The notes below the pieces were generated by a model that saw nothing but the letters and a program-made list of their open reading frames with translations, was not told the DNA's origin and ran no database searches. A stretch of DNA of 63,794 nt, filler included, from Collodictyon triciliatum (taxonomy: Eukaryota), in NCBI GenBank assembly GCA_043381765.1. It is 6 parts of 6 records of this genome, joined end to end, with 100 filler letters (N's around TTAATTAATTAA, not from the genome) between each part and the next. Parts side by side here need not be neighbours in the genome. Positions count along the whole stretch, not along the records: positions 12,549 to 24,991 come from JBHJMP010002167.1; positions 25,092 to 37,521 come from JBHJMP010002168.1; positions 37,622 to 50,057 come from JBHJMP010002169.1; positions 50,158 to 62,573 come from JBHJMP010002173.1; positions 62,674 to 63,794 come from JBHJMP010002334.1; 1 more part is not named here. One strand, written 5' to 3'. The first letter of the stretch is position 1. Each line of letters starts with the position of its first letter. The position numbers were made by a program, and so were the translations under genes. Shown here piece by piece: positions 9,192 to 63,794 of this stretch.

Positions 9192-11284
9192 GAATAATAA
9201 ATAAATTAAATAAAATTATTAATATATTTTAAACAGAAAATAAATTGGAATTTTACTAGATTATCGGATTCACTCTAGCATTTAAATGACTGCGAATGAG
9301 ATGCATTGTTAATTTAATTTTTGATATGATCAAATTACGAGTTATTTATAATCAATTTTTTCGACAATTTATTATCATATCACAATATAAAATCATTCTA
9401 AAAACATATTATAATATCGTTAAACAAAAAACTTAATTTTCTTTAATCTCTAACAATTCTGGATATTTTATCGTAATTAATTATTTTAGATAGTAATAGT
9501 TATCATTTTATATTAAAATAGTCAAATTTTAATCTTTTGGTTCGAATAACTGAAATACATTCAAATTTGTGATTATGAGATTATTTTAAATATATTGAAA
9601 ATTTTTTTGGTTTCTTTTCAACAGTTTAGAATTATATTGAAACTTATTCAAACAACGTGACAAAAAACTTGAGAACAAAAATCGGTGCAAATGAAGACCT
9701 TTTTGAGTCAAATTTCAGCGAAATTCAAAATAAAAATTGAGTTTTGAATCTATTATAATAGGCATTAATAAAATGTTTCAATAACATTGTATACTAAATG
9801 AAATGAAGAAGAAAAGGAAAGTTCCTAATAACTATAAATATTTATTTTTTTCGTTTTAATATTTCAATTAAATCATAGTAAAGTCTATCTTTCTAAACAA
9901 GAACACATTCACTTTTGAGTAAATGTGTTTATGCAGTTATATAATATTTGATGGTCATGTTTTTACATAAATAACAGCATATTCTACAAATTTAATCTGG
10001 GCCATTACCTTTGAATTTTAATGACTGAGAATAGAAAATTTCGAGCGATAAGCTATTAATATCTATGCTAAAATTTGGTGATTTTTTGAAAAAATAACCC
10101 AATATTTGAAAATTAAGTAAAAATAAAACAATCTATTTTAATTTCAGTGCAGAGTTTATCATTTGAAAAAACCAAAAATTTCCAATAAATAATATAATAA
10201 AATATTAAATAAGTAATACATATACATATATATCAATTGTTGATAACATACTAACCTCATGAATGAGCATTTTATATTAATAATATCTCTCATATACTTA
10301 GAATTTGAGGAGAATAAAGTGTTTTATTGGGTAATATGACTTAATTTACTATAAATATAGTGGTATTAATAAAAAATCAAATAGATTCAAAATAGAAGAT
10401 CAATTTTTTACATATCGATCCTCGACACGACATCTTATTTTCACTTAGAAAGTCAATATGACAGTCAGTAGGGCACTAATCGGAGTCATACTCTATGTTA
10501 ATGTATAAAATTATTACATGTCTCTAATATTGAATGCATTGTAATTTGGTAACTACATATTTTGATGTTATAATGATTTCAGCAATTCCAAGAAATTAAG
10601 GAATAGAGAAACGAATAGAAAAGAAAACAGACCAACATGGTCGATAGAAAAGAAAAACTAATTATTGTAAAACCAATAGAGGTCAAATGTTGGATGTAAG
10701 AATAAAAATTGAAAAAAAATGTCTAGATGATTCTTCACAATTCAGGCAGCTGAACAATCAGGGCTCTGATACCCACCCAACTCCTGAAAATCGCTAAAAA
10801 CTACTTAAAATCACGAATTGATTACCATTGGCAAATAGTATGGTGATATAATAACAATCCAGTGCGAGCTCCTATGATGAAGCAAGGTTGAGGAATATTG
10901 ATAAATCGAAGCAGAATTAGTATTATCCTGCAATGAGCAAAAAGTGGGATGAAACATGGCATTGACGATCCCAAAGCACTTAGCTAGCAATTATACTGAT
11001 AGACAAGCACCCTGCACCAAGCATATAATACTGGATAAGTGAATTTTTTTTTTATTAAATATGCAGATGCATAAGTGTTTTAAAATCTATGAAAATTGGT
11101 CGATACCATCCTGACTCAAGAGTTTTGCAAGTTATAATAAATGGAGTAAAATAGTACAATGACGATTCATGGAGTAGGCAATATCTATTAGCTAATGTAA
11201 GCATTTCAGTCATAATCACTTTTTATATTTTGGGAAGCTCTATCATTTCCAAGTGTTTTGTGTGATATTTCAAATTAAAAATAG

Positions 11285-22640: not shown

Positions 22641-24561
22641 TTTTTAAAGAAAGGTGCATGCATATTTTGAAGAGTTAAAAGAACTTTCTTGAGTATATTT
22701 TTAGTGTTGATAAAGTCCCTTGTTAACAATACACCTTGCATGCTTTCTGAGAGATTGCATTCTTTACATATGAGACATCTATAAAACTTATTTTGCATTT
22801 CCTTTCGGTTTCATATATTCCAGTTCCTTTTCGCAGTTGCAACACATCTTGGAGGTTTTAAATTCATCTACACTAAAGGTTTCAAAACGTTTGGATAGTA
22901 TTTTCGTAATCCTCTTCCGATTGTTGGCATAAAATGGTTCATCTGAGATTTTCTGCTCCAATCTCCATACGCCAGTACAACATCCTTGCCAAATGTCTTT
23001 TCGATTCGGTCCATAAACAACTGTTCACTTCTTTTTGTGTTAACATACTGTCTCCATTCTCGCTACACTTTGAATCGAATAAAGGAAAAAAAAAAACATA
23101 CTGTCTCCATCTCATCTCTCGAAAAGTTACTCGTTCATAAAATTTGGATAATTCTATCTGGTATCTTGATTTCATAGATACATATTTTCGAAATTTTTCA
23201 TAATCGACTGTGCATTAATTATGTTTACTCAGTTCTGTCTCTAAATTGATTAAAGATACTCTTGATGTCTCCCCCTTGATTTTCTTCAATTGTTCTGTGA
23301 CCAAAAGAAACAGCACTTTGTAAACCTGTTGCCATGTATATCCCTGAAGAATTGTACTTTTCTTTCGTGCAAGAGTATTTTGTGATTTTTAAGAGATTTG
23401 CTATCATGTCTTTGGTGTGCCGTGTAGCGTAATTTCTTACCTGTTTCATCCGCCATGTAAACCAAATTAAACTTGCCTGCGTCCACTCCAACTATTTTTT
23501 TGTCGCTAATAAAGATAAATGCTCTTCGGAAAGTTCATCTATATAAACATATTCTTGGGTTTTTGATTATATTTGGAATTTGAATTTGAAATACCTTTCT
23601 TTTTAAATAACAATGACACCGCCAAGCCGTCTGTTTGTATCAAGTATTTAATATTGTAGTCTCTTTGATGAATGACCCTCTTCTTCATTTCAAAGAAGTT
23701 ATACCATAGTGTCTCTTTGCATCCTGACATATTCTTCAGTAATAATGTTTTTCCTGTTGATAATAATATATCTATCTATCAAACATGCAGTATCTAGAGT
23801 AATATGATATGGTATATTGTTCGTTCTTATAGGGATTGGTTGAAGCAGTTTGGTTCCAATATCCCCAAAAATGCGATTCATGTAAATTAGACATGGAATG
23901 TACTTATTTGGATTGACTTTGACGACATATTCGATAGCTTTTACAATATCGCTGGTAATGATACGATTCAAATGCATTATAGTCCATCATTTATATTGTT
24001 CCGGTATGTCGAGATTCTTGAAGATGGCAATTTTAATTTTCGTAACTATGCCTTTTTAATAGCATCCATCAATTCTCATCTTTAGGAACTTTGATTTATA
24101 AAGTGCAGTGACCTCTTTACAAAACGCTCTTTTATGTTACTATGATAAGCTGTGATTATTTGCTTCGCCAAGTACGGTAATAAACAAGACAGTCCAACCA
24201 ACGGAAAGCGTTCTTCTCGGGACAAAAGGAATCGAAAATAATTGAGATAAAAGTCATCATGTCATAACTCATTTCTGATTTTTAATCTTGCGGGTATATC
24301 TTGTGAAGCTTTTTCGACTATCTTTAAAGCGTACAGAAAAACCATTTCATAGATTGTTGAGACTTGTTGTGATTACAATATGTAACATCTTGCAAACAGA
24401 AAAGTGTCGGTAATCAAATTATGACACGATAAAACCGTATTGTTCATTTTGTAATCGTCATCCAGATTCTTTACAATCGACTGTAGAGATGTTTTCCCAT
24501 TTCGATAGTCTGGTTCTACAAACCTTAGATTCTCAAACTCAAGCCGTTTTCTTTTCTTCAT
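22589..24561 (-). pseudogene. Fanzor1 (TnpB-derived RNA-guided RuvC nuclease) pseudogene
   Basis: Broken frames give, in order: KTSLQSIV...FLFARCYIL, KVNPNKYIPCLIYMN, QPIPIRTNNIPYHITLDT, IQTDGLAVSLLF, RuvC-I VGVDAGKFNL, LAYGDWS...MPTIGRGLR, VDEFKTSKMCCNC, CLICKEC, RuvC-III TRDFINTKNIL. Several stops and frameshifts; no introns. Confidence 0.88.
23058..23094 (+). mobile_element. Micro-retroposon-like insertion, copy 1 (inside Fanzor)
   Basis: tctcgctacaCTTTGAATCGAATAAAGG(A)n between perfect 16-bp direct repeats aacatactgtctccat (23042-23057, 23095-23110). Confidence 0.9.
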
Positions 24562-25298
24562 CCGAAAGTCTTTGTTTTACTTTTTCTTTTAGAAAACTAC
24601 CGAGTTTTCAATTTTAATAAAACTTGAGTTAATCAATCAATTTAACAATAAATATAAAAAACTGCATAAAATCAATTTATGTAAAATTAAGCATATACCG
24701 AAACCCCTTTGGTTTTGCACAAAAACCACACGCCATGACAACTAAGCCTCACTATGACGACGAAAGTGCGGCCTACAAGCACTAAAGAACGTGACCGGTG
24801 GAGTGAGCAGCGGGACTGCAGGAGAAGGGACTCTACCCGGCCGGCTGTGTGGTGCGCCTTGTGGGCGTTTACACTGAAACACTGAGACGCACGCCACACG
24901 CCTGCGCTTGTTGGAGCAGCTGTGCGAAGTCCACCGCACCCGCGAGTGCGCCACGGAGGGCGTTGTGCTGCTGGCATCCGACCTGTCGAGCNNNNNNNNN
25001 NNNNNNNNNNNNNNNNNNNNNNNNNNNNNNNNNNNTTAATTAATTAANNNNNNNNNNNNNNNNNNNNNNNNNNNNNNNNNNNNNNNNNNNNTTCTCTTTT
25101 TTTTTTTTTCTTTTTTTTTTTCTTTTTTTCTCTTTTTTTTTCTCTTTTTTTTTCTCTTTTTTTCTCTTTTTTTCTCTTTTTTTTTTTTACACTTTTCTCT
25201 TACCCTCCGCACAGCACCCCGAGGTAGGCTCCCGCACACGAACACACACACACACTCACACACACATAGCGAGAGAGACCCTTCCCCGTCTGTCGATC

Positions 25299-27189
25299 AT
25301 GTGGCAGCGAACGAGCACACACGGGACGTCTCCAACAGCGCGGTGTGCTCACGCAGCAGTGATCTGCACCAACCTCTACGTCTTTGGAGGATGGAACGGT
25401 TCGATAATGCTGGACGATCTGCACGTCTTTCAGATCGGTTTGGACTTTCTCACTCGTTGCTCCTTATTTACAGAATTATTAGAATAGTTTCATGTCTCTT
25501 TTACTGGGGTTTTTACTGGGTTTTTTTTACTGGGTTTTTAAACTGGGGTTCTCCTTAAAATCTACAGATACAAAGACGTGGTCGAAGCCGATATTCACTG
25601 GAACAGCGCCCCAATGCCGAGCAGGACACAGTGCCACAGTTTGCGGCCATTTGATATATGTCTTCGGAGGTGGCGATGGAAGTGTGTTCCTGAACGACAT
25701 GCATGTGCTTGACACAGGTTTAGCCAATGACCAACTGACTCTCGTGTAGAACTCTTTAATTAAATGCACCCTCATATTGTTTGAAATGCTCATTAATATA
25801 TTTGTGTATGCACATTCATGCGTTATTTATGTATTGATTATTGGTTTTATTTGGTTTTATTTGGTTTTATTTGGTTTTATTTGGTTTTATTTGGTTTTAT
25901 TTGGTTTTATTTGGTTTTATTTGGTTTTATTTGGTTTTATTTGGTTTTATTTGGTTTTATTGGATTTTATTTGGTTTTATTTGGTTTTATTTGGTTTTAT
26001 TTGGTTTTATTGGATTTTTTTTCGTTCGTCATTAACCAGAGACGCTCTCATGGAGTCAGGCATATGTGGTACTGGTCAATTTCAATTTCAGACATTCGAG
26101 CCATCCGCATAAATGTCCACAATCCTTTTTAATCTATGAATTATGATGCATCGTCCTCATTCTTGGGTCAAGTCTGGAACTCCTCCTGCTGCTCGGTCGC
26201 GTCACTCTGCAACACTTATTTCTGGAAATCGAATCCTGATATTTGGAGGAGGAGATGAACGCCGTGTCTACGATGATATTTACTGCCTCGATATAGGTCA
26301 TATGATTTTCAATTACCTCATGTGCTGGAACAATATATGAAAATCGCACACGAATCATGCATATGCATATTGATGAAAGTACCGAAATAGTCCTGAATCA
26401 TTGATACTGTCATCTGCTGTATATATCAAAGCTTAATCAAACGCTGTCTATATTGTATAGCTACCATGTCTTGGTCCAGACTACGAACCAACGGAACCCC
26501 GCCAGCTCGTAACATATTATTTCAAAAAGAAGGATTATTGTATCCTGGGTTTGCTTTTGATATTCTGTATGCATATTCTTACTGTTTATTTTTATAGCAC
26601 GTTGGGCGCACACAGCATCTTTAGTAGGAGAGAAACTATTCATATTCGGGGGTCGTGATGGAGATCGGCTGTACGATGATTTGCACGTTTTAGATATAGG
26701 TCTTTCTCTCTATGATTCATTTACAATTTATATATTCTATATGGCTGAAAATTGGAAATGAACGCCAGTGTATGATGATACTCTGCATGTGTACTCGCGC
26801 CTTGTTCTCACTATGAAGAAACTCAGAATCCATGGCTTGGTCTCAGCCACAAACCTCCGGCCTACCACCGATAGCGCGGGCTGCCCATACATGCTCCATC
26901 ATCGGTACCATTCAACATCTATATATTGTGTTTGTAATATGTGCTGTTAGAATTTTTGTGTATCAACTTGTATATAAATGGGCGAACTCTGTGAATACAG
27001 CGACTGTGCCGTTTCTTATTGTTTTTATTCTCGTCAATACAGGAAATTGCCTGTATTTCTTTGGTGGAGGAGATGGAAATCGAATGTTGAATGAAATTGT
27101 GGTATATAATACTGGTATTCTTTCTTATAATGGAATTATGAATATTTAGACTCCTTTCTCTGTTTTTTTTTAGAATAGAATGAATCCTT

Positions 27190-27288
<99 letters not shown>

Positions 27289-28919
27289 TGTTTTGTTTCA
27301 GCCCTTTTCGTCAAATATCATGTTATGTAGTTTTATATCGGTTCCACCTATTTTAGATAACCTCACATGGACACGCCCAAATATCACAGGCACTTCTCCA
27401 ACATCTCGATGTGCTCATAGGTATATTCATTCGCTACTCCCAAAGTTTAGCTTGTTTGTACAAGTGACCCTTTTTCATCATTTTCTTTGCACTATTAGCG
27501 CATCAGCAACTGGAAGCCGGATTATTGTTTTCGGTGGCAGTGACGGGAACAGGCGATTCAAGGATATCTATATTCTGAATACTGGTGACCTTTATTATCC
27601 CATAATTTTATTATTATAGAAAAAAGAAAAAAACGTTTGAGTTCGTGTCTCATTTTTGAGAAATGAATTGCGCAACAAGCTGCCAGTAAGTAATCATCCT
27701 TTTCATTTTAAAATAGAGCATCTTGGAAAACACAAAGAGGAGCCTTCAAAGGAAGACAATAGAAAGGTTTTACAAAAAAAAAACCCCATATCTTACTCTT
27801 GTTAATGTTTCTTATTAGAAAAAACTGTACTTATCAATTGATTTATTCATTTAATCTTGTAATTGAAATAGACACCAAGTGTTCGGGCAATTAAAGGCTA
27901 CGGCGCTGCTTCAGATTCTGCTGATAAACAAATGACCTCTGTTTACGAATCCCAGCCTGTCCAAAACGAAGTCCACAACCAAATTGCAAGCACACTGATG
28001 AAATCGCCTCTGACAGAAATCCCCACAGCGAACCCAACCCCTGATGAAATTCCATCAAACGAGACTATACATGACATTCGCCCGACGAGTCCCTTAGTAG
28101 CAAACACACCGCCGCGTTTGTCTCTATACAACTGTTCTTTTTAAAAAAAATAAAAGGAATTAAAAATCATGAAATTAATGGCTTTTCGGTTCTTTTCTGT
28201 ATGCGGAAAAGTTTATGATAAAAAAAAAAAAGAAAGGCATGGAAAATAACTGTGCAAATTACATTATTTTCGGTGTAGAAAACCTGCCAAGGAGGTCGTC
28301 GTACGCTCACATCACTGGAGAACTTTCGATGGATATTCGGGGTTGGCTTCAGCTTCATAACATGGCAAAGTATACAGATTTATTTCTCCGGGAAGAGATT
28401 GATATGGTCATTCTGCCGCATATCACGGAACAAGACCTTGAAAAGATTGGTGTGGATGCATTGGTCTGTTGTTTTCGTGATGAATTTTCTTTCTTGCTAT
28501 CTCGCCTACAATTTATTATTTATTTATTTTTTAGCTCTTTGTCTAGTCTCTTTTTAATTAGCTTTTTTAAAATTTTATTCCTCACTGTATTTTTTTATTA
28601 TTATTTTGTGGTTATTTTATGTTCAAAATTAAAATTATGCGACTGATTGAAAACTCATTTTATAAATGCAATAACTCAATATGTATCCACATAGGGGGCA
28701 AGAAAGAGAATGATGCTCGCCATTACGCAATTGAAATTGTCTCAGAATTCTGCTCATTACTCAGTTCTCTCCACACAAATGAAGCTGGAAGCACACTCTA
28801 GTCGCCCCAGTATGACTCTCTTTTATGCTCTCACCTATGCACGAATCAAACAATCGAAGGGAAAACAATCGGAACAATATAGGACAAACATAATCCCAAC
28901 CAAGAATTATATCTTATGA
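25299..28919 (+). CDS. Kelch beta-propeller + C-terminal SAM domain protein (spliced)
   Basis: Repeated PxxRxxHxA...Y/IFGG motifs across GT-AG exons; SAM-like DIRGWLQLHNMAKYTDLFLREEIDMVILPHITEQDLEKIGVDAL|GARKRMMLAI. Exact stop uncertain. Confidence 0.88.
25840..26010. repeat. Intronic (TTGGTTTTAT)n minisatellite
   Basis: Direct reading; lies within a Kelch-gene intron. Confidence 0.95.
27190..27290. repeat. Intronic (GTT)n microsatellite
   Basis: Direct reading. Confidence 0.95.
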
Positions 28920-29468
28920 GTTCTTTTCGACAAGCGCTGTTTTCATCATCGCAAAAGACTGACTTTTTTTTTTTTTTTACCACAGCCTCGCCGAACAACG
29001 CCCTATTGTTACAAAAGATAGGTACATGCAAATAACAATTAATTGAATAATATAGTTGTCATAAGGGATTTAAAAAAAGTTTAATTCTTTTTTTATTTTA
29101 TTACAAAGTGATAGAAAAAAGAACAAGATAATCTGACAAACTGTTTGTAGCACTTGACTTGCAACAACTTGTCGTGGATATAAGCAAACTCAACCAATAA
29201 AACAAAGTCGGACTTTTTGGAGATGTGATGTTGCAGTGATTCTTGTCTGCAAAAAACCACGCAGACAGCGAAGCTTCGTCTGTGATATCATAACAGATTG
29301 CCCAAATCAGAGGAAGGGAAGAGAAAGAAAAGTAAGGAAAAGAGAACAAAGAGCAGAGGGAAAACAATAACATATTGATTAACAAAGAAGGGAATGTCAA
29401 GAAAGCATGCAAGTCTTGGATGAATTATGTTTTGTTTTTGTTTTTTTACTTTTTTTTTTTTTTTTGAC

Positions 29469-29562
<94 letters not shown>

Positions 29563-29769
29563 CCTTTCTTATTTCTCCTCTGTTCTAGATGTTCTTTTCT
29601 CCAAGAGGAAAACAATCAAAGAAATAAACGTACTAAAGAAATCGAAACATCGCTGGTGAATTGTGCTTGGGGGTTGAGATTGATATTTATTTTATTTTTC
29701 ATAATCATTTAAACCTTGGGACAAAGAGGCTCAAGAAAAGAAAATCTAAGAAGGAAGAAACTTTGTTGA

Positions 29770-32700
29770 AGGCGGAAGTGGGTGTCTGGGTTCCCCGGTA
29801 ATTGATGAGCACCGATTAAAATGCAGAATTCGATTCATAACCGTGATTCATTTCTTTTCCCTTTCATTCTTTTTCCTTCTGCAGCGTTTTCTTTTTTTAA
29901 AAAAAAAAGAAAAAAGAAAAATGAAGCTTGCACCACAACAGTGTGATTAAAAAAGAGTACGGTATTTCTCGATGATAAAAAGAAGGGCGTCGTTTGTCTG
30001 TGGGATTTGTGAGCTTGTTAAAAGCGTGTCGATCCGCGGACGAATGACATTTGGCCCAAAGACAGTGGCCTGCATTGCGAATCGGATTGTATAAATTGAA
30101 CTGTGAAAGTGATGATTGAAACAAAGATAGCAACACTTTTACATCAGGCTCGAGAGAGAAAAAAAAAAGAATGGGATATTTTCTTGATAATATATGTGGG
30201 TTTACAATCATATATGCTTGAAAAATCGAGAACAGAGATCCCTACCAGATTTTTCATGTTCATTTTGTTTTTCGAATGGAATTGCGAGACCCTTATTTCA
30301 TCGAATTTATTTGTTTAGGTATATAAAATATTGGTATTATTATTATTATTATTATTACTATTACGGTTCATGTAATAGTGTGGTAGAATATATTCCTATA
30401 ACCAATGCATGTCAACTTCATATAGGGTGTGTGTATATACATTTATGAGGGAGGAATAAGATTTACTTTGTGAGGAATGAACACAAAAACTGTAGCGCTT
30501 TTTGGTGCGAGTTGGGGAGTTTGATAATGATATTTTTAAATTCGCAAAGTTTGACCGCTGGGTCTTCGATTTCTGAGCAATAAAGGAATTGGTTAGAGCA
30601 AAAGTGAGGTATGCTCTCTAGGATGAAATAGAATACTAATGTGTTGAAAATATGGATGCATCAAGTGTCTCTTCATTAATATATATATATATATATCTTT
30701 AAAACAGCGTCTTAGATGTGAAACAGGCGCGATGGATGGTTACAGATAAATGAGAAATACATCTTCGTGCGTTATGCTTATTGGTGGCATATGCACTATA
30801 AACCATAAAAAGGGAAGCATTGCAAATGAATCGAGAACAAAACAAAAGCAGACTAATGCAAACACTCGTAATGGATTACCCTGTGCTGCGACTACATCTT
30901 CATACATGGCGAATGGGATGAGAGGCTCGGGCAGGTCACGCAACCACATTTTTATTATTGCGGCAATATCGATGGGGTCCTGGTCAAGAAAGTCGTAATC
31001 TCGACCTTTTCGATGCATTTTTTTTGGAAAAAAGAAAAAGGGGGGAGACAGAAGAGTGAGTGAGATGGTTATAGTATACCTTTTTGAAAACATTTCTATG
31101 GATAAATTCCATAAATCTTCATTGTATGTTGAAAACAGGGTGCAATACTACCTGCGTCTAGTGTTTCCTTAAGTCTTTCAACAGAAGCTGCGTTTCCTGG
31201 GACGCGGAAAATGCCCTCAATCTCAAGTCCTGCGTTTGGAATGATGAAGTAAACATAAAGTAAAAGAATCGGGATTTGGAGCCGACAAACAACAGTGTAT
31301 TTTATGAAAAAGCATGCATGTGATAGAAATTACCTTGAGAGAGAATGTGTTCTGCGGCGTCATGAATGAATTGTGGAACCGCGTGTTGATGGTGTTCTTT
31401 CTTGAGAAGGGCATCCAGAGGTGATCCAAAGACTGTTGGCGATATTTAGGGATTATGGGAGAAATGTTAGCACTATTGTAAGAATGTAACAATAATAAGA
31501 AAAAAATAATAAAAGATAGTGCGACGATATTTCATGTCCCACATACCTGTGTTTGCAACTCTCTCAGAAAGCGCACTGGATATGCTTTCGACCCATTTCC
31601 TCTTCTCCTCTGCGGTGGATGCTGATAGAATAAATGATTCGGATGGTAACAAAATCTCGAAGATGAATCGAAGATGTGTCGTATGGTAAAGGATGAATGT
31701 AGGTAGTTTGTAATGGCACATGAAAGAGAAGTATTTGAAAATTCGTTTCAATATGGCATCATCGGATTTTACTGGAGTGTGTCCTTCGTTTATTGCATTT
31801 TACTTCAAAATAGAATTATTCACGGGCTATATACACATCAAAGCCATTTATAAATAAATTTGTCTCAATTGAAAGACTGTTTCATAAAAGGATATTTCCT
31901 TGGTCAGGTAGATCACGAATTTTCATTTGTGAAATTTTGTACATATTACGAAATCTAAATGTGGTGTCATAGGGCAAAATTACAATGATAATAATTGATG
32001 GTAATTGGTTGCATGTAGGCTACCTGAAAAGGAAAACAGCGTGAGTAATTTGATATAGATGCACTACCTAAACATATTCTTGTTAGCTGAGCGAGCTAAT
32101 ATCAAGCGGTCATCAAATAGAAAAATGTGTCTCTGGTTGAGCTTCGATTCGTGGCATGCAATCAAATCTCCCTCTTGAATAAAGATAGAGTCCAACGAAA
32201 ATTTGTCCTATACGAGGAATATTTAGCCGATTAGGAGCATTGTCATTCATAATTTTGAAGCTTGTGTATTTATGCTGATCATTCAGTTGTATTTTGTGTT
32301 GATTTGTTGATTAATTTCATATTAACTACACCAAACTCAAGCATTTGTGGATAAACATGTGTTTGAAAAAAAAAGTGATCACTTACATGCCCGTCCTGCA
32401 TCCTCCTCAGAATATCGAGAACTTGTGCGCGACTTCCAGATTTTTCTAATCTATTGTTTGAAATAGTTAGTACATAGTTGATATGGTGTCGCGTTTGGAT
32501 TAATTTGATCATTTTTATTGGAGAAAAAATACCGCCATTGATTTGAGTATTAGGCTAATCTCACTTTGATTGGATGCTGAAAGTCAATCTCCTCATCGAA
32601 TCATACGCTTGAGATAGTTCACTATAATCATTGTGTTGCGGTGGAGTATTCTGCAATATCGTCTGTGAAGACAAGAGAAATTAAAAAAAAAATTAAATAA

Positions 32701-35700
32701 AAAGGCATCATTATTGCTTCGGAATTTAATGTTGAATAATTATTATCCCAAAACTCCCCTATGTTAATCTATTGACGTAATGACCAGGTATGTAGTCATT
32801 GTAAATTTTAACCTCGATAACTCGTTCATAAAGAGATGTCCTGTCCAAAGGCTGTGAGAGACACGCTTGGAATGGTAAATCGCCAGGATTTTGATTCTCA
32901 AATCCCTTGGTTGATTATTGATGATATTTTAATTCAAAAATGGAACGACAGAAGACGAGAAAAGAGAATATGGTAATATATATAGGACTATGTTGGCTAC
33001 GAAATTTTGAGCTTTTACTTGAACAAACGATGCGAATCTTGCATTCTCGTCAAAGCGCGAGAGAACATCACGAGAATGTTGGAAATTGTTTGCATACTCT
33101 TCGTATATCTTCATTGCATTCACCTATATTTGGTTTCATTTATTTAATTCAAGTGGTTACAATATAAATGTCACAATATTGACTGAATGAAATGACTCAT
33201 CGAGGAATGAATGGTGTGCAAAAAAAAACCCATTACAGATTTTTTCAAGATAGTTCCGATGTTCTCAGCAGCATAAGGCCATCCATTTGTGAGCTCTTCT
33301 AAGCTTTGGAGGAATTCATAGTGGTAATGAAACAGTGCTTCATAATTCCCAAATATCCCCTAAAAAAAAAAATTTTATCTCGTGAACACTTCTTTTTCAA
33401 AAAGAGCAGCAATTTAAACACCATTTAATAAAGAATATTGATTTTAGATGGAAATGAATGGTCGTAAGAAATGAATACCTTGAGTTCATGAGGGTCGGGG
33501 AAGTTTGGGTCACGGGAACTTCCTAGAGCAGAAGCTTGTTGCGATAAAGGAATGTAGAATGTCTGAAATTAAGTGTGGGGATATGTCAATATACTATTGC
33601 ATAATTTCTATGCTGCACGATCTAACAGAAAAAAATGAATGAGTGAATAGTCAAGACTTAGAAAAAGGCTTATTTTTTTTCGTAAAAAGAATGAAAGAGT
33701 AATTTTTGGGCATGTGAATTTAAATCAACGAATCATTTTGAACCTTGTAGCAATATTTCAGTATTTCCACATAACTTTTTTCTGCATTTAAGAGGTCCAA
33801 TATAGCCATTTGACGAGGAATCATTCCAGAACTCTCTAATGGGGGAAACCTCTACTGTAAGAATCGCTCAAGTTATGTACATAGGAATAGGAAACCGTAT
33901 AATAGTGAGCAGAGAACATTAGATATTTGAAATGATATTCACGAAGGCAAAAAATAAATAAAAAGTGAATGGGTATAGGTTTTGCCCATTACTCATCATC
34001 TTGTATCGTCTGTGTTCGATTCTTCTCTTTGCAAACCGTTGAATAGTGTAAATTGCCTTGCATTTTACTTGATGTTCGAACATATTTTGAACCTCAGTTT
34101 GCACTTGTTCCTGTCGATGATAGGAAATTGCCAAACATTCAATGATTGGTATAAAAAATCAAAGACAGCTTGCATGAAGATTAGTTACTTAATGCCTATT
34201 ATCGGTATCTACATTAGGCAATTTACCAAAAACTCTATCTGGTTCTCATCGAGCAATGCAATTGTGTTTTTTCGTAGCCCCTGAACACTTTCCAGGGTCG
34301 CAGCAACATCAGCAGGTTGCAATTTCATGGACAAGAGGAGAAACCGAAGGATTTTGTCAAAGAAGACCCCGTTATCCTTTCATACAGTTTTTTGTTTAAG
34401 AATCCCATGTGACCGTAATAATAATAATAATAATAATAATAGTAATAGTAATAATAATGCTTTTCTCGAAGGAACGACTTAATTAAATTGAGATTAAATA
34501 ATCCATTAAAAAACTAAATATATGGAACGAGGAAGATATTTACTCTTGGGTCTCGCACTGTAGCACCCTCTGAAAATCCTTCACCGTCGACCTCAAACCC
34601 ATCCAGGTCTGCTCCAGTAGAAATGTCAAGGTCTGAGATATTTGGCATATCGAGAGCCTCATTCTCGTTTTCATCTATTTCAGGTGTTCAAGGAAATAAT
34701 ATTTTGAATTGGTACATACTAAATAATGTAAAAAAAATTAGGCTTAATATAAAAATGGCATACATACATACATACATACATACATACATACATACATACA
34801 TACATACATACATACATACATACATACATACATACATACATACATACATACATACATACATACATACATACAGTTCATGAATGAATTATTACAATAACAA
34901 AACAAAAAACCTTTTACGGCTGACGGACTTCCGAATCCTTTCACCTTCACAGAGCCCGGTGAGCCTGCATCTTCAACGCTTGTTGAGCTCGAGCGCGAGC
35001 GCGGATTGTCTGTATTTGCCTCGTCCGACTCGCCCTCTCTTTTCGCATTCTGGCCCAGAAACGAGAACGAAAAGGAAGACGATTGTGTAGAAAGCGCGTC
35101 GGAGTTATCGGTTGGTTTGGCCTTTGAAAACGCAGCAAAGAACGTGGCATTTGTGAAGCGTTCGCGAAGGGACGATCCTGTGCGATCTCGTGAGGTGATT
35201 TCGTCCTCGTCGGCGTTTGTGCTGCCAAAGTGGATCGGCATACTCGGAGTCGACGAGGAGGTTGTGCCGCGTCGGATTTTGAAGATGGACGAAGCCCCAG
35301 AGGCCATGACTCTCGTGTCTGGTGAGGAAACTATGGAGCTGTGAAACGTACAAAGTGTTTGTGAAAAGGTTTTCGTTTTCGTTTTCGTTTTTTTTTGTCG
35401 GCCCCGTTAGCTGTTATTTATGGTAAAATAATATTAATAATAAAATAAAATAAAATAAAAACAATATAAAATAAAATAAAAACATTTGGGGAAGGCGTCC
35501 TGCGTGGGTCGACAAGGACTTGATTTTATTTGAAAGTATATATGTTCGATTGAATACATTTTCATATAGTCTCTTTGTTTCGAAGCATAAGTGCAGGAAG
35601 GTTAGGGCGAGGACTGGGTTTTCTGTCTCCAGGGAAGCACCCGCGCTTTGGCTGTGAAGCTTTTGGAGAAGGCGAAATCACCCGCGAGTCAAAGAATCTC

Positions 35701-35884
35701 CTGTGCTTGAAAGCCATGCGAAAATCATTCGGTGATATATCCTACATGTGGAATTTATACCGCTGGAGAAACTGCCATTCGTTTTGCTTTCGGGCTTTGA
35801 TTGACGCGTGAGAGTTGCTTGCTTCGGGGTAGGCCTATTGAGACGAACGGGGCTTGGCCATTGCTCCTGGCTGGGCGAGTGCAT
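29770..35884 (-). CDS. IQ + RhoGEF(DH) + PH + RhoGAP protein (spliced; 3' end approximate)
   Basis: IQ-like AIYTIQRFAKRR; DH: LLNAEKSYVEIL, IFGNYEALFHYHYEFL, IYEEYANNF, LSQPLDR; PH: RHIFLFDDRLIL, FILSASTAEEKRKWV; GAP: VFGSPL, EGIFRVPG, IKMWLRDLPEPLIP, NKMNMKNL|ATVFGPNVIRP. Exon 35884-35761 splices in phase to 35330. Confidence 0.88.
34759..34871. repeat. Intronic (CATA)n microsatellite
   Basis: Direct reading. Confidence 0.95.
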
Positions 35885-35941
35885 CTACACGGCCCGCCCG
35901 ACTGGCTGATACACATCATATATTATCTCTAGGTTGGAGAA

Positions 35942-55900: not shown

Positions 55901-58900
55901 AAGCTTTCTATGGAGAGCATTCGATTTCACTACTTTTGATTTTATTAAAGTGTGGGCAACGTTGAACACATGGAATCTGTGTGGATTTGGTGGATTGATT
56001 TTAGATAGAACAGAATTTGTGGCATCAAGGAGTCCCATCGTTCTCTTTTCATTCTCAGAATTCTGTGAAGGTTCTTGTATTTCTACAATCGAGGCATTGA
56101 TATCGTCCTTGATGTATTCAGCTGCAAAGAATTCGTAGAGAGATTTATGAAAGAACTCATAAGTTGTGGCACTTGATTTTTTAATAGGAGCACATCTCAG
56201 CACGAAAATAGAATAGGACGGCTCTCCATCTTCGAGTTTGTGATCGGGATTAGCGTTGAAAAATTTTGCGTAGGCAGGGTTCTTTGACAATTTTCCCTCA
56301 ATTGTTTCGTATTCCAAGGCGGGTATACCAATTTGGCACATGGTCTGAGCTATATCTTTACATTTATTCCAGAGTAATGTTTGTAAATCTTGAGGCATTC
56401 GTTGTTTCAAGGATAGTGTTGACTCGAGTTTTTTCCTTTCACGTTCGAACCATGTCCTTGAAAACTTATCTAGAAAATCCGTTCTCATCATCTTTGCATC
56501 GTCCTTGGATTTTTTAGAGTCTCCACGTTCCCTGCAAATTGATGGAAGTGTAGTGGCTGCCATAAAAATCATGAATGGAGTGATGGCCAATTCTTCAAGC
56601 TCTTTGATTTTTTTAAGCTCTTCCTCGTATCTTTTTCCATCCTCCCATCCTTCCACAGGATTTATTTTTGCAAAATTAATAAAGTAGTCGAGTCTTTGTC
56701 TTGGTTCAAATGATGTAAGGTATATTTCATCCAAAGAATAGCCTTCTTCGCTTTTTGGTGCAAACAATGATTGATATCGATTTTTTCTATCCAAAAACTG
56801 TTTACGAAATCCAATCACAAATTTGCAGTTGGGCCACTCTTGTAATTTGTTTGAATGATAGAATGACGTACTTCTGTCCTCAATTTCATCGAAGCCATCT
56901 AAAAAGAATATAAATTGCTTATCTTTGAGCTCTTTAATTTGTTCTTTACGGAAATCAGAGTCTGATATATAGAGACTATTTTTGCTTTCTGACAAGAGTA
57001 ATTCTTTAATAACTTTCTCCCTTGGATTCTTGAGTGATGTCAGAGGGACATACAAAGGAATGTATCCCTTTCCATATTCATATTTTTCCCACAACAATCG
57101 GGTGATGTATTGTTGCAAGAGAGATTTTCCAGAGCCGGAATCTCCCAGCACAAGTAAAACCTTAGCTTGTGAAGCTTCGATGAATTTGAGTATGTATTCT
57201 TGGGCGTCAAATGATCTACCTCTCTCCAGAATCCTTTCTGCTCGACCTGGGATGTATGTAAGGAATCGACTGTTAAACTCTCTGTTTCGTATGGTCTCTT
57301 CTTTAATGTTTTCCAGTATATCTTTAATAGTCCTTTCATCTCTCCCCGCTTTTTCAAAAAGAATTGTGGGTAAATATAGATTTTCTGGAACAAAAGAACA
57401 TAACTTGCTCTTTTGTTCTTGTACGAATATATCTATTTCATCACTTTTTATCCATTTTTCATGGCTCGTAATGTAATTCAGAAAAGATTCATATTGTTGT
57501 TCAAGGCCTTTTCGAACAAAGCATAGACGATCACATATCGCATCGAGAATCAAAAAGGCAAGATTTTTTTCAATCTTTTCTGTTTTCAGTGAGGCATAGG
57601 CATCCCAAACTTTTTTGGCCTCATCAACACCGGTTGATAAAGAAACACGAAATAATTGGTAAAAGATAAACCAACTCCGTTTTATTTCGATTTCACCAAA
57701 AGAGGTAATTGTTTCTTTTAGAGAGCTCAATGCACCGCCAATATCGAAGGACAATACTGAGGAAGCCACGTTGAATAACCCAAGGCTAACCTTACCAGCA
57801 ATTTTCAGATTTTTTATAACAGGATTCTGACCATCGCTAATGTATTTCAGAAGCTCACAGAATAAATATTTCTTTGCCTGCATGTGCTTTATCTGCACTT
57901 TGGTTTTGATATCTTCACCATGTGTCTCTGTTTTCTTTTCAATCCAACTTTGGCTAAATGCTTCCTTGTAAGCCTTATATTTCTCTTCAGGAATACCAAA
58001 TGCACCAGAAATATACAAAGAGTTTAGGATGGCAATTAAACTGTCTAAAATCTTTTCGCACAGAGCTTCATCAGATGCAAAAAGGGCCCCTACACGATCA
58101 ATTAAAATATTAAGAACCGTGGCTAATAATACATGGTCAAAGTCTTCCTTTAACGTGTTGGACACAACAATTTGAAGGGCATTCAACAAACGCTCTAGTT
58201 TCTCAATTCCTTTCTGAATCTTATCACCAATAGCAGTCACCAGTTTTTCTGATATGAGTTTATCTCCTGCTGGTGCCAAAGCAGTAAGTTCTCTGAGACT
58301 CTCGTCGGTAGTAGTATGCTCCTTCATGAAAAGCTTTATGATTCGAATGGCTCTTTTCTTCTCAATTGTAGCACCTGATTGCTTATCTCTTTGTTGAAAT
58401 ATCGATAAAGCGAGCTGTGAGGCATCGGAAGGCCCTTGTATTATTTGAAAGTTCTGATTTGCATCCATATTAAGAACCGAAACTAATTGATCGAGTGGTA
58501 AGTGGCTGTGCTGATTAGAGGATTTTGGAGGGACTACTGGAGCTAATTCTTTTTTGACATTTGTATTCAAGCGAGCTGAAAGATGCGATGTGTTTGTGAG
58601 TGATCTGTCCACTATAGGAATACTTTTGTTAGTGAGGCCTTGGGTCGATGAATTTTGAGATGGCTGGTTGGTTTCGATTTGCATGGATTCCTGTAAATGC
58701 AAAGAGATAGAGTTTTCATGACTTGATATCGATGTATTATTAGGTAGGATTGTGGAGGGGGCCAAGTAAGCAGAGGCCTGAGGAAGAATCGCACGAAATA
58801 TAGAATCGATTACTTGGCTATTTTGCTCTATTGCTGGCAATCTTGATATTTGGTCAACAAGGCCCTGAATTAATCTTTGTCTTGATTCGTTCAGTTTTTC

Positions 58901-60686
58901 CATGAGTAAATACTGTTTTTCCAAAAGTAGCACTTGTTCACGAAGACTTTCTGTTTGAGCTGCAGATTGTCTCTCAGCGATGATGGCTTGAGTTTTAGCT
59001 ATGTCGGCCTGTTCACGCAGATTCTGTGTTTGAAATTTAGCCTGTCTCTCTGCTAAAGAAGCTTGTTCACGGAGAAAGTCGGTTTGAATGGCAGAATATC
59101 TTTCAACAGTAGAAATATTTAATGTAGCGAATCTTTCAATAAGTTGAATATCATTCTCCTTCGTGGCACTTGCGAGAAGTTGCGATGCCAACACATGGCT
59201 TAATTGTAAGAATATATTCGGGTTATTTGGTTCTGTCGTAGAGGTGGATTTCATCGGTTGGCAAGATTCATTTAGTTTGGAAAGAATATCGAGAATTTCG
59301 GGTGTTGCATCCCCTTTGATTCCTGACTCTTTCTCTGAGGAACCATTTTGTCTTGTGTGTCGTGACCAAGAGTTTCCCCCTCCTCCTCTTGAGGATATAT
59401 GTAATTGATGGTGTCCATTACCACGAAATGTACTTTGTAAAGATTCATAAAACAGTGCGTCATCCTGCAGAACATTTGGGTCGATGTTGGGTGGGACAAT
59501 TAAACCGATGAATGAGCTTTCATTGGGTGCTACAGTTATATAGTTGGCATATGTTAATTTTGGACTTTGAATTCTTTCATTTTTGGAGTCTGAATCATAT
59601 TTTGTTAAAATCTTCCCATGTTAATTAACAAGAATGATGCATATTAAGAGAAAATAATATGTGTAGAAATAAATGGATAGTGCAATTATATTATTTGAAG
59701 AAATATACATTTTTGTGTACTATAGTCTGGAAATGCGACCAAGATATCATCAGTTGTCTGTAGATTACATATCGTCAGCTAATTATACCACATGTTCAAA
59801 AAAAAACATGCGAGAAATCTCACAATATTTGTGTACAATTTTACATGATGGTTTCAATTCTTACAATTGGTCGATGTGATTGTTTGGATAATTTGGTATC
59901 TTTCTCCTCTTTAGATGGTATATCTTTGGAGAGAAAGTAAGTGGAAAAATTTTAACAACTCGTTAGGATATCAGAATATTAATTAATTCAGAATAAGTTG
60001 GAAAAAATCCTTCTGGTGTTATCTATTCCGAATGATAAAATAGTGATACCTTGGTGAATCAATCGAGGAAGTGATGTATTGTTTTCAAGTGAGACATTTA
60101 GATAATCGATTGTCGGTTTCTTTCGTAATAGTAAAAATAAATAAATGTGAAATTGAATCCATCACATTTATTCAATTATGAGGAGAGAAAAGCTACGTAA
60201 TGTATCGAAAATATACCCAAACCCCCTCAAATTTTTCCAAACTGTTTCCGTTACTTTTTTGAATAATACCTTCTTTTTTTCAAGTCAATGTGACGATAAT
60301 TTAGTATATATGTAATGGATATGGTTGTTCAAGGGTATTTTTGTGCTTTTTTGGAAATAAAGAAAACTTTGTTGGCTGGCTTGGATTGCAGTATCAACAG
60401 AGACAGAATCTTGATAATCGTCAGGATTGGTACTCTTTGACTCATGTAAACTGATTATACAGAGGTTACATGATAAAGGTGAATATATCATTTTTTTTCC
60501 TTTATTCGATTCAAAGAAAGGTGAATATATCATAATTATTTCTTTTGTTCAATGCATCAATTTAAGTTAAATTATCATTTTTTTGCACATACTATGCACT
60601 CGCAAGATGCTCTAGAAGGTTATTTTTATTCATTTCAGTCGGCATGGGGATGTGTGATTCGTCGCGGAATCCACCGTTGGCTTCAT
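52925..60686 (-). CDS. NLR-like STAND protein: helical N-terminus + NACHT + pentapeptide repeats + 13 WD40 + Sel1-like repeats; main exon 52925-~59612 plus upstream exons running into a gap
   Basis: Walker A VLLVLGDSGSGKS, Walker B FIFFLDGFDEI, YEFFHKSLYEFF, AASNAITILNYADVSFSDMDFRGIQIPNADM, 46-aa WD40 units, three ECYENGWGVEKD-type repeats; frame stays open ~120 codons upstream of ATG 59254. Confidence 0.92.
60492..60516 (-). mobile_element. Micro-retroposon-like insertion, copy 6 (probably in an NLR intron)
   Basis: tttttttCCTTTATTCGATTCAAAG between perfect 17-bp direct repeats aaaggtgaatatatcat (60475-60491, 60517-60533). Confidence 0.92.
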
Positions 60687-62673
60687 NNNNNNNNNNNNNN
60701 NNNNNNNNNNNNNNNNNNNNNNNNNNNNNNNNNNNNNNNNNNNNNNNNNNNNNNNNNNNNNNNNNNNNNNNNNNNNNNNNNNNNNNNNNNNNNNNNNNNN
60801 NNNNNNNNNNNNNNNNNNNNNNNNNNNNNNNNNNNNNNNNNNNNNNNNNNNNNNNNNNNNNNNNNNNNNNNNNNNNNNNNNNNNNNNNNNNNNNNNNNNN
60901 NNNNNNNNNNNNNNNNNNNNNNNNNNNNNNNNNNNNNNNNNNNNNNNNNNNNNNNNNNNNNNNNNNNNNNNNNNNNNNNNNNNNNNNNNNNNNNNNNNNN
61001 NNNNNNNNNNNNNNNNNNNNNNNNNNNNNNNNNNNNNNNNNNNNNNNNNNNNNNNNNNNNNNNNNNNNNNNNNNNNNNNNNNNNNNNNNNNNNNNNNNNN
61101 NNNNNNNNNNNNNNNNNNNNNNNNNNNNNNNNNNNNNNNNNNNNNNNNNNNNNNNNNNNNNNNNNNNNNNNNNNNNNNNNNNNNNNNNNNNNNNNNNNNN
61201 NNNNNNNNNNNNNNNNNNNNNNNNNNNNNNNNNNNNNNNNNNNNNNNNNNNNNNNNNNNNNNNNNNNNNNNNNNNNNNNNNNNNNNNNNNNNNNNNNNNA
61301 AAAGACCCTTAACTTACTATGTTGGCTTTTTAAAATGCAAAATTCTTAAAGAAATATATATTATGTACATAAGTATAAAAAAAAAGCTCTCTTTTCGTGA
61401 TGTTAACTATGTTAAAGTGAGAGTTGTTTTGATAAAATTAGCTACGTTAATAAAAAATGCGAGGTCATCTCTTTTCTAGACCAAGCGTTATTATACAGAT
61501 ATTTGTCCAAATTTCAAAGAAAAATGCTATATTGACAATAGAGAAAAATATTAAGTTTCAGATGATAGATTCTCATCAAAATAATTTTGAAAAAAGAAAT
61601 TATGTTTAGAGAATAAAATTATCATAGTTGTGTATTGTACTGGGCTCTAATTGTATTGAAAAATTGGATTTAAAAAAAAAACTGAACGTTAAAAAAATAG
61701 TGCAGACCTAATAATTAAGTAAATCGTCGTAATTATTATAAAAATTTCAACCTTTGGTCATGTTATTTTCATGAAACTAATTATGTTTTAATTATCATTT
61801 TCTTATGTTGGAAATATTTGTCGACGTGAGTATTATTGGTAGAACCTTCTTTTCCAAGAAAGATACATAAATGTCAGAGAATGAAAAAGTGTGATATGTA
61901 TATGAACAATAATGGTCTCACGTTACAAGAGTCGGTTCTATGGTGTAAATGTTCGAAAATTAGAGCTTTGAGAAATATTGTACCTTTATAGGGAAATTAT
62001 GAAAGTTATCAAAATGTCTTATTGATTCATATTCATCACATATAGAGGATATGAAATAGCTTGGCGAAGAAAACGGTATTTATATTACCTTGACTCTATT
62101 CGACATATGTACTGAAAAATAATGTGTTTCGTCTTGAAGCAGAATGTGGTGCGTTTTACTGATCTCGATATTTGGTTTAAAATAATTTTGAATTAATGAA
62201 AAAAAAAAAGAGTTTCATCCCAAAAGACACCTTCCTTTTATCTCTGCTACGTAATTGAAACTATACAAAAATTGCCTGTTGATTATGACTTATTCTGTGG
62301 TTAGATATGATGTAATGAATATTGAAATAGACTAAGCATAACACATTTGGCTGTAACAGGAAAATTCGGCATATTCTTAGAACATGATATCCAATATCAA
62401 CTATTCCTTCTATCTTTTATTCTTTTATTCTTTTATTCTTTTATTCTTTTATTCTTTTATTCTTTTATTCTTTTATTCTTTTATTCTTTTATTCTTTTAT
62501 TCTTTTATTCTTTTATTCTTTTATTCTTTTATTCTTTTATTCTTTTATTCTTTTATTCTTTTATTCTTTTATTNNNNNNNNNNNNNNNNNNNNNNNNNNN
62601 NNNNNNNNNNNNNNNNNTTAATTAATTAANNNNNNNNNNNNNNNNNNNNNNNNNNNNNNNNNNNNNNNNNNNN

Positions 62674-62790
62674 AAAACCATAAAACCATAAAACCATAAA
62701 ACCATAAAACCATAAAACCATAAAACCATAAAACCATAAAACCATAAAACCATAAAACCATAAAACCATAAAAACACAGAACCATAAAAA
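62674..62790. repeat. (AAAACCAT)n scaffold-end microsatellite
   Basis: Direct reading; similar T/A-rich 7-11-mer arrays end most scaffolds here. Confidence 0.9.
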
Positions 62791-62919
62791 CATAAAAAAA
62801 AAACATTAAAAAATAGAGTCAAGATATCTAGCAACTGAAAGGAAAAAGGGAGAGTTGGATGCGAAAGGGAAAGCATTTCTTTGGGCGAAGAATCAGGGTT
62901 TAAGTGGGGCCCTTGACTC

Positions 62920-62937
62920 TCGAATAAAGGGGAAAAT
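62920..62937 (+). mobile_element. Micro-retroposon-like insertion, copy 7 (shortest)
   Basis: TCGAATAAAGGggaaaat between near-identical repeats agtggggcccttgactc (62903-62919) and agtggggctttgactc (62938-62953). Confidence 0.78.
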
Positions 62938-63794
62938 AGTGGGGCTTTGACTCCGCAGTCCATAGACGAGCATTAATAGTCGATCTGCACTTTTGTGACT
63001 CTTTTTTCTTTTGTTTTTTTCATTATTCTTTTTTTCATTTCCCATCTAAACAAGATTGCTACGGCACACCACGAAATGATAATAAAAAATTTTTGTTCTG
63101 GTGTCTATGCCCTTTTCCAAATTTGTTCATTTATATTAGTCATGAACTACCAGAGTTCTTTGCAAGGTATCTCTCTGGAGAGACATGTCACCTATGATTT
63201 TCTACTTAAGTGATTGAAGCAGGAATCCAATTTCGTAAATTTTCCTTCGAAATGTCATTTCATTTTCGCCCAATTTTTTCTTCAATCTGCCCCGGCATCG
63301 GCTCCTACTGCTTTGTGGGTCGTGGAGACAAGCACTACTGGGTAAACCGAGTGGGTTGGCTGTGTCTTGCTGACTTTGCCTCTGCGGCTTCGCTGCTGGT
63401 CACGCACTGAAGGGCGTCTTGGTGGAAGTGCAGCGAGATGCCTACGGCAAACCCCTCCACAACTTCTGGCACACCTTTAGGCCTAAGCATGGGAAGTCTT
63501 CGTCTAGATTGTTTTTGTTTTTTTAATTGTATATGAAAGACCCGGAAAAAGAGACACGTTCTCTTGCTGAGCTGCTGGGCCACGTCTTGCTTGTCGGTGT
63601 GACGAAAAGTAAGGCTTGAAAAGAGGCAAATCGAGACTCAGCACAGAGACGGTTTTGTGGAATGCGTAGCTTGTTGCCTCTCGCTGAAACAACTTCACCT
63701 ACACAACCCCGTCCACAAGTTAAAAAAAAAAAAAAAAAAAACAGGGACAAACAACACCTAGGAATAACAAACATCTTCTATCTTTTTCGGATCC

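Follow-up and report, generated by a model that had tools for sequence, protein, structure and literature searches.

Seven short A-tailed inserts in Collodictyon triciliatum, probably extremely 5'-truncated copies of an L1-like retrotransposon

Seven very short A-tailed inserts in the genome of Collodictyon triciliatum are, in our judgement, probably dead-on-arrival copies left by a single L1-like family of non-LTR retrotransposons (APE-endonuclease type) after extreme 5' truncation. They lie in a window of 63,794 nucleotides, the whole stretch of DNA analysed, which is made up of six contigs of about 12.4 kb with linkers of the form N44-TTAATTAATTAA-N44. The inserts bear the signature of target-primed reverse transcription (TPRT), their sequence is identical to the 3' terminus of a LINE, no longer copy occurs among the seven and their 5' end points are clustered.

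Inserts, tails and target-site duplications

The 18-mer CTTTGAATCGAATAAAGG matches the window with at most two mismatches at six sites (23068 and 40531 on the plus strand; 38577, 39519, 41513 and 60499 on the minus strand), while the chance expectation from 100 dinucleotide shuffles is 0.00. A 3'-anchored search of the window, with TAAAGG plus an A-rich tail as the query, gave nine matches, seven of which make up the insert family, including a copy of 11 nt at 62920-62930; the matches at 36382 and 21176 have only 7 nt in common with the family and were dismissed as chance. The family motif with its tail has the general form (N)AATAAAGG(A)n, and its copies are spread over four contigs in both orientations at a frequency of about one per 8.9 kb. 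A sequence-only reading of this DNA had described seven A-tailed copies in both orientations on four scaffolds, and this is borne out, the 11-nt copy being the seventh. A generic caller for A-tails with target-site duplications (TSDs) returned one further candidate only in the window, at 9591-9642, which is very AT-rich and possibly a chance match.

Copy s1 (23042..23110, plus strand) lies between two copies of the TSD AACATACTGTCTCCAT (23042-23057 and 23095-23110, 16/16), and its 37-nt insert at 23058-23094 begins with a T, followed by the terminal 27 nt of the LINE at its 3' end and by a tail of nine A's, or 10-11 if the A's common to the TSD are included. Perfect duplications also flank s4 (40513..40571, plus strand; 18 bp, AACTTACAACATAATATC, at 40513-40530 and 40554-40571) and s6 (60475..60533, minus strand; 17 bp, ATGATATATTCACCTTT, at 60517-60533 and 60475-60491), whose inserts are the exact 18-mer followed by A5 (40531-40553, 23 nt) and by A7 (60492-60516), respectively. 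The minus-strand copy s2 (38553..38607) has the TSD TCCGCTAATG(T/C)CCT at 38594-38607 and 38553-38566, with 13/14 positions matching, and a 27-nt insert (38567-38593) that begins at element position 2-3 and ends in the tail AACAAAAAAA. In s5 (41489..41548, minus strand), a decayed 18-bp TSD (15/18, at 41531-41548 and 41489-41506) encloses the 18-mer with one mismatch and the tail AGAGAA (41507-41530). The duplication around s7 (62903..62953, plus strand) measures 17 nt on one side and 16 nt on the other (62903-62919 and 62938-62953), with one mismatch and one indel, and of the element the insert keeps just the 3'-terminal 11 nt (TCGAATAAAGG, 62920-62930), followed by a degenerate tail, GGAAAAT. 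Copy s3 (39513..39536, minus strand) consists of the 18-mer with two mismatches and A6; because no TSD is recognisable there, it is presumably the oldest copy.

In each of the seven copies described above, an A-rich stretch of 5-10 nt immediately precedes the downstream copy of the target; it consists purely of A in s1, s3, s4 and s6 and has decayed in s2, s5 and s7. Each insert bears an AATAAA signal together with its A-run. TSDs of 14-18 bp were measured at six of the seven copies, s3 being the exception, so that the earlier description of six copies with flanking direct repeats, ranging from perfect to decayed, stands. Ungapped TSD scores for s1 to s7 are 16, 11, 6, 18, 9, 17 and 8. Scores of at least 9 were reached at 5/7 insert sites; among 2880 random positions in the window, 137 (4.8%) scored as high, most of them in microsatellites. 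The score of 6 at s3 is at background level. Together, the A-tails and the 14-18 bp duplications uphold an origin by TPRT, as had been proposed from the sequence.

The junctions between upstream sequence and TSD read GTGTT|AACAT, TATTT|AACTT, TAATT|ATGAT, GTTTA|AGTGG, TTCAC|AAGAA and TGTAT|TCCGC in the six copies with a duplication. A T stands at -1 or -2 in five of the six junctions and five of the six TSDs begin with A; the sample is small, and where the tail adjoins a TSD that begins with A, its exact limit is uncertain. The L1 endonuclease prefers TT|AAAA, and most of these junctions appear to resemble that known preference. Four of the seven inserts are located within 3 kb around a tRNA-Ala gene, on which basis insertion close to a pol III gene may be preferred. 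An origin of these four clustered copies by a tandem duplication of about 1 kb was rejected.

A fragmented assembly in which contig ends are microsatellites could raise the suspicion of a chance similarity or of an assembly or adapter artefact. This explanation is hardly conceivable in view of six matches where none is expected, of copies that lie inside contigs in both orientations, each in its own TSD and of differing ages, and of the same sequence terminating a LINE in an independent metagenome contig.

A LINE 3' terminus in an independent contig

Long elements ending in the motif had been suggested as a place to look for a parent, and a LINE 3' end with the same terminus was indeed found, in a metagenome contig of 1157 bp from another sample (L005). 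This contig contains an ORF with a zf-RVT domain (PF13966; 32.4 bits, cut-off 27.5), which represents the C-terminus of a reverse transcriptase, followed by a stop codon and a 93-nt 3' UTR that ends in ...CTCGCTACACTTTGAATCGAATAAAGG(A)11; the insert sequence is the last 18 nt of this UTR. Copy s1 is identical to L005 at 37/37 bases, reaching 9 nt past the 18-mer. The sequence-only reading had also stated that extra 5' bases differ between copies, which does not hold: only s1 has such bases, 9/10 of which continue the 3' UTR of the parent element, and elsewhere they are the ends of TSDs.

L005 is the one true relative among 12 loci returned by a metagenome scan with a 20-mer. The other 11 are chance matches inside unrelated sequence, four of them one and the same sequence. 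Prokaryote genome contigs gave four motif matches, all by chance and in MAG coding sequence, and viral contigs gave no motif match and no relative of P0015. A search of sequencing runs gave eight, all of them metagenomes and none RNA, with small shares of 0.05-0.11.

Relative to P0001 and P0015, L005 carries a frameshift, and it is therefore itself a dead copy. A phmmer search with its ORF returned 14 proteins at E<=0.001, including one 98%-identical fragment and four relatives with lengths of 1226-1275 aa and identities of 29-38%. Exo_endo_phos and RVT_1 domains are present in each of these four, and a sub-threshold zf-RVT in three of them. The RT and endonuclease domains were seen only in these relatives of about 30% identity, the parent being known from the L005 contig alone. 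No full-length element of the insert family (>50% identity) was present among 1.84 billion representatives, and a word-index protein search with the L005 ORF in its 'longer' setting gave no matches.

A further LINE family, B, is represented in the window at 11273..11694 on the plus strand. The copy is an ordinary truncated one with a TSD: a 5'-truncated stretch of 398 bp (11285-11682) within the 12-bp duplication AATTAAAAATAG, comprising an ORF2 C-terminal remnant and ending in ...TTGAAAGGAAGAATAAA(A)n. Family B is related to L005, P0015 and P0002 by tblastx and tblastn and is distinct from the insert family. Small ORFs of the window yielded Kelch, RhoGAP, SAM and ankyrin domains only. The best protein relatives, from assorted eukaryotes, show 27-38% identity.

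SINE/LINE pairs with common 3' tails are well known, and each insert retains at most 28 nt, which is too little to tell a SINE template from a LINE template. Because just 28 nt are in common, the template could equally be a SINE borrowing the LINE tail, and the inserts would then be truncated copies of a SINE or other non-autonomous element that has at least its last 28 nt in common with the LINE. We regard this as very unlikely, given that no SINE head or tRNA-like sequence stands next to any copy and that the sole longer sequence found to end in the motif is a LINE, L005. An Rfam scan of the window identified two ordinary tRNA genes only, neither of which adjoins an insert. The inserts, which total 18-37 nt, lack the layout of a SINE, in which a tRNA-, 7SL- or 5S-derived head with an internal pol III promoter is followed by a body and a tail like that of a LINE.

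Length, 5' end points and folding

The length of element sequence kept is at most 28 nt in 7/7 copies (range 11-28 nt, mode exactly 18 nt), which has a probability of about 2e-6 under a log-uniform length model of 11-5000 nt. This uniform shortness is the one unusual trait of the inserts. The 5' end falls on one identical base in three copies and within 1-2 nt of it in two others, so that 5/7 lie within 3 nt. Under the best-fit low-processivity (geometric) model, at least 5/7 end points in any 3-nt window occur with P = 0.08, and P = 0.004 is reached only when the cluster is required to be clear of the detection floor. The stop of homology at a common 5' point, noted from the sequence at the outset, is real, but the sample comprises only seven copies.

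The shared start base, the two starts within 1-2 nt and the 0-2 non-templated-looking bases form a run-off pattern, as would be expected if the template were a dedicated, discrete RNA consisting of about 18 nt and a poly(A) tract, cleaved from the LINE transcript just 5' of CUUUG or made from a master locus, and copied to its 5' end as a minimal module recognised by the RT. Such a tail-only micro-retroposon would also fit the P values of 0.004-0.08 against the geometric model, the lack of any longer copy in seven and the density of copies in the window. We nevertheless consider it unlikely. Copy s1 extends into the LINE UTR by another 9-10 nt and s7 falls 7 nt short, so that an RNA of 18 nt cannot have served as template in every case. 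Furthermore, 18 nt are too short for a pol III promoter, an RNA of 18 nt with a short A-tail is without a shown route to stability or RT loading, and cmscan of L005 at E<=1 revealed no ribozyme (HDV-like, hammerhead or others) and no other Rfam family beyond two chance-level lncRNA matches. A ribozyme-processed RNA was accordingly rejected, with no self-cleaving ribozyme near the common end point in L005.

The common 5' end is at the same time the first base of a 4-bp inverted repeat, CTTT...AAAG, legible in the sequence, which raises the idea that the RT recognises a 3' stem-loop CTTT-GAATCGAAT-AAAG and aborts at the hairpin base. Stringent-type LINEs are reported to be recognised via a 3' UTR stem-loop (PMC5135761). 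The 3' end of family B (TTGAA...GAATAAA) is loosely similar to the insert motif when the 3' ends are aligned; against this, two families are too few for covariation. In the parental context, the RNA stem has a folding energy of only -0.3 kcal/mol (z 0.85), and 158/200 shuffles fold as well. The whole L005 3' UTR folds no better than its shuffles (z 0.40), the MFE of the cDNA strand is 0 kcal/mol, and the fold of -4.7 for the RNA in the s4 context is due to chance flanking bases. A stable conserved 3' stem-loop, a feature of stringent-type LINEs, is thus absent, conservation having been compared with one other family only (B), and we hold a hairpin-directed abort to be quite improbable. Neither RNA and DNA folding nor the Rfam scan found a structure, ribozyme or other feature that marks the stop point.

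These results separate the two options that the sequence-only reading had offered. The one that fits is a LINE whose RT habitually stops early, in keeping with the LINE 3' end found in L005. An abort at the hairpin base is not supported, the hairpin being without thermodynamic backing as the cause of the stop. Nor is a self-standing minimal SINE-like RNA, for which 18 nt leave no promoter room, Rfam provides no match and the lengths of s1 and s7 do not fit.

Proposed mechanism, related systems and implications

Under the preferred explanation of truncated LINE copies, the element endonuclease would nick a T-rich/A-rich target and the freed T-rich 3' end would act as a primer at the poly(A) of the element's transcript. 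The RT would then copy just the last ~18 nt of the 93-nt 3' UTR (range 11-28 nt), and the short cDNA would be attached to the target end on the upstream side, with 0-2 additional bases and no microhomology, while a second nick 14-18 bp away would give rise to the TSD. We favour the view that the terminal 18 nt are, or are part of, the site that the RT holds at initiation. If the RT failed to switch to processive elongation after initiation, or met a barrier or the end of the RNA at this point, abortive yet integrated products could result. Since stubs without a promoter cannot propagate, all copies would derive from full-length masters elsewhere in the genome.

The inserts share with 5'-truncated L1-type LINE insertions the poly(A), the variable TSDs (14-18 bp here), apparently the nick between T-rich and A-rich sequence, and the retention of the 3' end at the loss of the 5' end, as well as a putative parent with a zf-RVT domain at the ORF2 C-terminus and distant full-length relatives with APE and RT. 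L1 copies are spread in length over hundreds to thousands of bases, whereas the inserts described here keep 11-28 nt in 7/7 cases, and protein identity to any full-length element found is about 30%. A poly(T) stretch in NF1 exon 25 has been discussed as 'a severely truncated L1 element' (PMC3219598), and insertions of this kind show that products with almost no template body can be integrated by the L1 machinery. Such tail-only insertions are rare single events of uncertain template, whereas in the family described here this outcome is recurrent and dominant, the template can be recognised and one stop is preferred. Short RNA-templated insertions with LINE-type junction features are also known as class 1 templated sequence insertion polymorphisms (PMC5110952); their templates are assorted cellular sequences, in contrast to the retrotransposon's own 3' terminus in every case here.

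Stringent-type LINEs and their SINE partners exemplify the idea that the RT needs a short 3'-terminal module, and the 18-mer could be such a module. They differ from the present case, in which there is no stable stem-loop, the end is poly(A) as in relaxed L1-type elements and no promoter-bearing SINE body occurs. The literature yielded no occurrence of a 14-nt part of the motif in a full-text search and, by keyword, no published LINE family in which tails of about 18 nt are the mode, which is weak evidence of absence. The eel pair UnaL2/UnaSINE1 is reportedly an example of a stringent-type LINE and its SINE.

If the window is a fluke, the inserts represent routine 5' truncation in a new but ordinary L1-like family. 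If the pattern extends genome-wide, LINE activity can litter a genome with insertions much too short to be picked up by standard repeat annotation, and the AATAAA signal and A-run of each insert would bear on annotation, on the calling of indels and polymorphisms and possibly on the polyadenylation of host transcripts. A bolder and rather doubtful proposition is that an active L1-like LINE mainly produces, in place of truncated elements, a defined tail module of 18 nt with poly(A), at about one per 9 kb, with a sharp 5' boundary set by a discrete processed RNA or by the footprint of the RT on its recognition site, and perhaps with a location near pol III genes. Were it true, thousands of copies of 25-40 bp would be invisible to repeat finders, and the boundary would provide a natural read-out of the step from initiation to elongation in TPRT. 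A sharp, sequence-defined stop 18 nt into the template, if real, would be one of the few natural means of studying how a LINE RT departs from the site of initiation.

Short A-tailed inserts and their target-site duplications

The sequence-only reading had proposed a family of A-tailed hairpin micro-retroposons with long target-site duplications (TSDs) at 23042-62953, and the insert family itself proved real. The 18-mer CTTTGAATCGAATAAAGG has six matches in the window at no more than two mismatches, where 100 shuffles predict 0.00, and direct repeats bracket six of the seven copies. A 3'-anchored search of the window (TAAAGG plus A-rich tail) returned nine matches, of which seven are family members, one of them an 11-nt copy at 62920 (s7); the other two were dropped because they have only 7 nt in common with it. 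The copies lie on four contigs and in both orientations, at a density of seven per 62,278 non-N bases.

The duplications match at 16/16 positions in s1, 13/14 in s2, 18/18 in s4, 15/18 in s5 and 17/17 in s6, while a mismatch and an indel separate the 17- and 16-nt repeats of s7; s3 (39519) lacks a flanking direct repeat. An ungapped TSD score of at least 9 was reached at five of the seven family sites versus 137 of 2880 random positions, the latter mostly within microsatellites. When the whole window was scanned with a generic insert caller (an A-run, then a 10-mer recurring within 400 bp upstream), six calls resulted: four family copies, a 398-bp LINE fragment and one unrelated candidate. This last candidate (9591-9642, minus strand) is a 32-nt stretch with A7 at its end, flanked on both sides by TTTCAATATA, in surrounding DNA of 22% GC; it is unrelated to the 18-mer and could be due to chance.

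Taken together, the A-tails, the TSDs of 14-18 bp and the T-rich|A-initial junctions bear the signature of target-primed reverse transcription (TPRT) by an APE-type LINE. Most of the junctions resemble the L1 endonuclease consensus. At the 5' junctions, microhomology is zero and 0-2 extra bases are present. Since an 18-nt stub contains no promoter, every copy must derive from master elements elsewhere.

Parentage of the inserts

Public metagenome contigs were scanned using a 20-mer taken from the motif. Of 12 loci, 11 were chance matches inside unrelated sequence. The parent-like contig, L005 (1157 bp, from another sample than the window), carries on its minus strand the motif with an A11 run after it. 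An open frame upstream encodes a zf-RVT domain (PF13966, 32.4 bits; cut-off 27.5) and, past one frameshift, extends to a stop located 93 nt short of the A-run. CTTTGAATCGAATAAAGG therefore forms the final 18 nt of a LINE 3' UTR. The frameshift in ORF2 (minus strand, about 550-610 from the 5' end) is defined relative to the 98%-identical protein fragments P0001 and P0015, which read through the site; the L005 copy is itself decayed. The single longer copy in the window, s1 (23058-23094), is identical to L005 at 37/37 bases, that is, 9 nt past the 18-mer, and its "extra 5' bases", noted earlier as differing between copies, are therefore parental sequence.

A phmmer search with the L005 frame against 1.84 billion representatives returned 14 proteins at E<=0.001. 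Near relatives among them are short fragments of environmental contigs, and four are long (1226-1275 aa, 29-38% identity). Exo_endo_phos and RVT_1 occur in all four long relatives, and sub-threshold zf-RVT in three, a domain set that corresponds to the L1-like architecture.

The window also holds a copy of a second LINE family, family B (11273-11694, plus strand), 5'-truncated to 398 bp, with a 12-bp TSD and a 3' end of ...TTGAAAGGAAGAATAAA(A)n. The ORF2 C-terminus that remains in it shows about 41% identity to L005/P0015, and both families have a loose TTGAA...GAATAAA terminus in common. This copy is an ordinary LINE truncation from a related family; a search of the window for RT-coding remnants found none besides it.

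The most likely account of the insert family is extreme truncation of an L1-like LINE, in preference to a new retroposon class. The template could also have been a SINE sharing the tail of the LINE, as the sequence in common with the LINE amounts to only 28 nt or less; truncation of an L1-like LINE is the explanation we prefer.

End points and the terminal module

None of the seven copies keeps more than 28 nt of the element (P about 2e-6 under a log-uniform length model, 11-5000 nt). With the first C of the 18-mer as reference, their 5' end points lie at -10, 1, 1, 1, 1-2, 2-3 and 8. Under a best-fit geometric model (very low processivity), the chance of five or more of the seven falling within any 3-nt window is P = 0.08; requiring the cluster to sit 5 nt or more above the detection floor, as observed, lowers P to 0.004. 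A preferred stop site is therefore likely, though seven copies fall short of proving it.

The suggested hairpin with a CTTT/AAAG stem found no thermodynamic support. In parental context the stem folds at -0.3 kcal/mol (z 0.85), a value equalled or bettered by 158 of 200 shuffles; s4 and s6 score better, owing to fortuitous flanking bases. Shuffled sequences fold as stably as the 116-nt end of L005 (z 0.40), and the cDNA strand has an MFE of 0. Rfam families, ribozymes included, gave only two chance-level lncRNA matches to L005 at E<=1. The stop coincides with the first base of a 4-bp inverted repeat and, given the terminus common to both LINE families, the terminal module may plausibly contribute to RT binding.

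Genomic setting and known systems

The window is eukaryotic, and its six contigs, each about 12.4 kb (GC about 36%), are linked by N44-TTAATTAATTAA-N44 (12449-12548, 24992-25091, 37522-37621, 50058-50157 and 62574-62673). Microsatellites, e.g. (ACAAAAA)n, (TTTATTC)n, (GTGTCTTTT)n and (AAAACCAT)n, occupy nine of the ten linker-side contig ends. Two giant uninterrupted ORFs lie on the minus strand, one of >2427 aa (1-7281, extending past the window start; WD40 x18 and Ephrin_rec_like x30) and one of 2231 aa (52928-59620; NACHT and WD40). The closest database relatives are just 27-38% identical and taxonomically scattered.

Four of the seven copies fall inside 3 kb (38553-41548; about 0.34 expected per 3 kb), roughly symmetrically about a tRNA-Ala(AGC) gene (39986-40058, minus strand), one of two tRNA genes in the window. 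On one side the distances are about 450 and 1390 bp, on the opposite side about 473 and 1455 bp; an N gap at 40929-41026 makes the 1455-bp figure uncertain. The clustering may reflect a local hot spot for insertion. Duplication of a 1-kb unit was ruled out as the source of the four copies, as none accounts for the clustering. Directly adjoining the tRNA gene (40060-40185) are about 12 tandem units of a 10-bp, AGTATATTGA-like repeat.

Insertions truncated to the tail have been recorded as rare events, e.g. the NF1 poly(T) insertion, discussed as possibly a "severely truncated L1" (PMC3219598). Short LINE-mediated insertions from other RNAs (class 1 templated sequence insertions) are described in PMC5110952, and 3' stem-loop recognition by stringent-type LINEs in PMC5135761. 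Motif and keyword searching of the literature found no family with an ~18-nt tail as its dominant product, which is weak evidence of absence. The window family works like L1-type 5' truncation, pushed to an extreme; what is unusual about it is its uniform shortness together with the preferred 18-nt end point.
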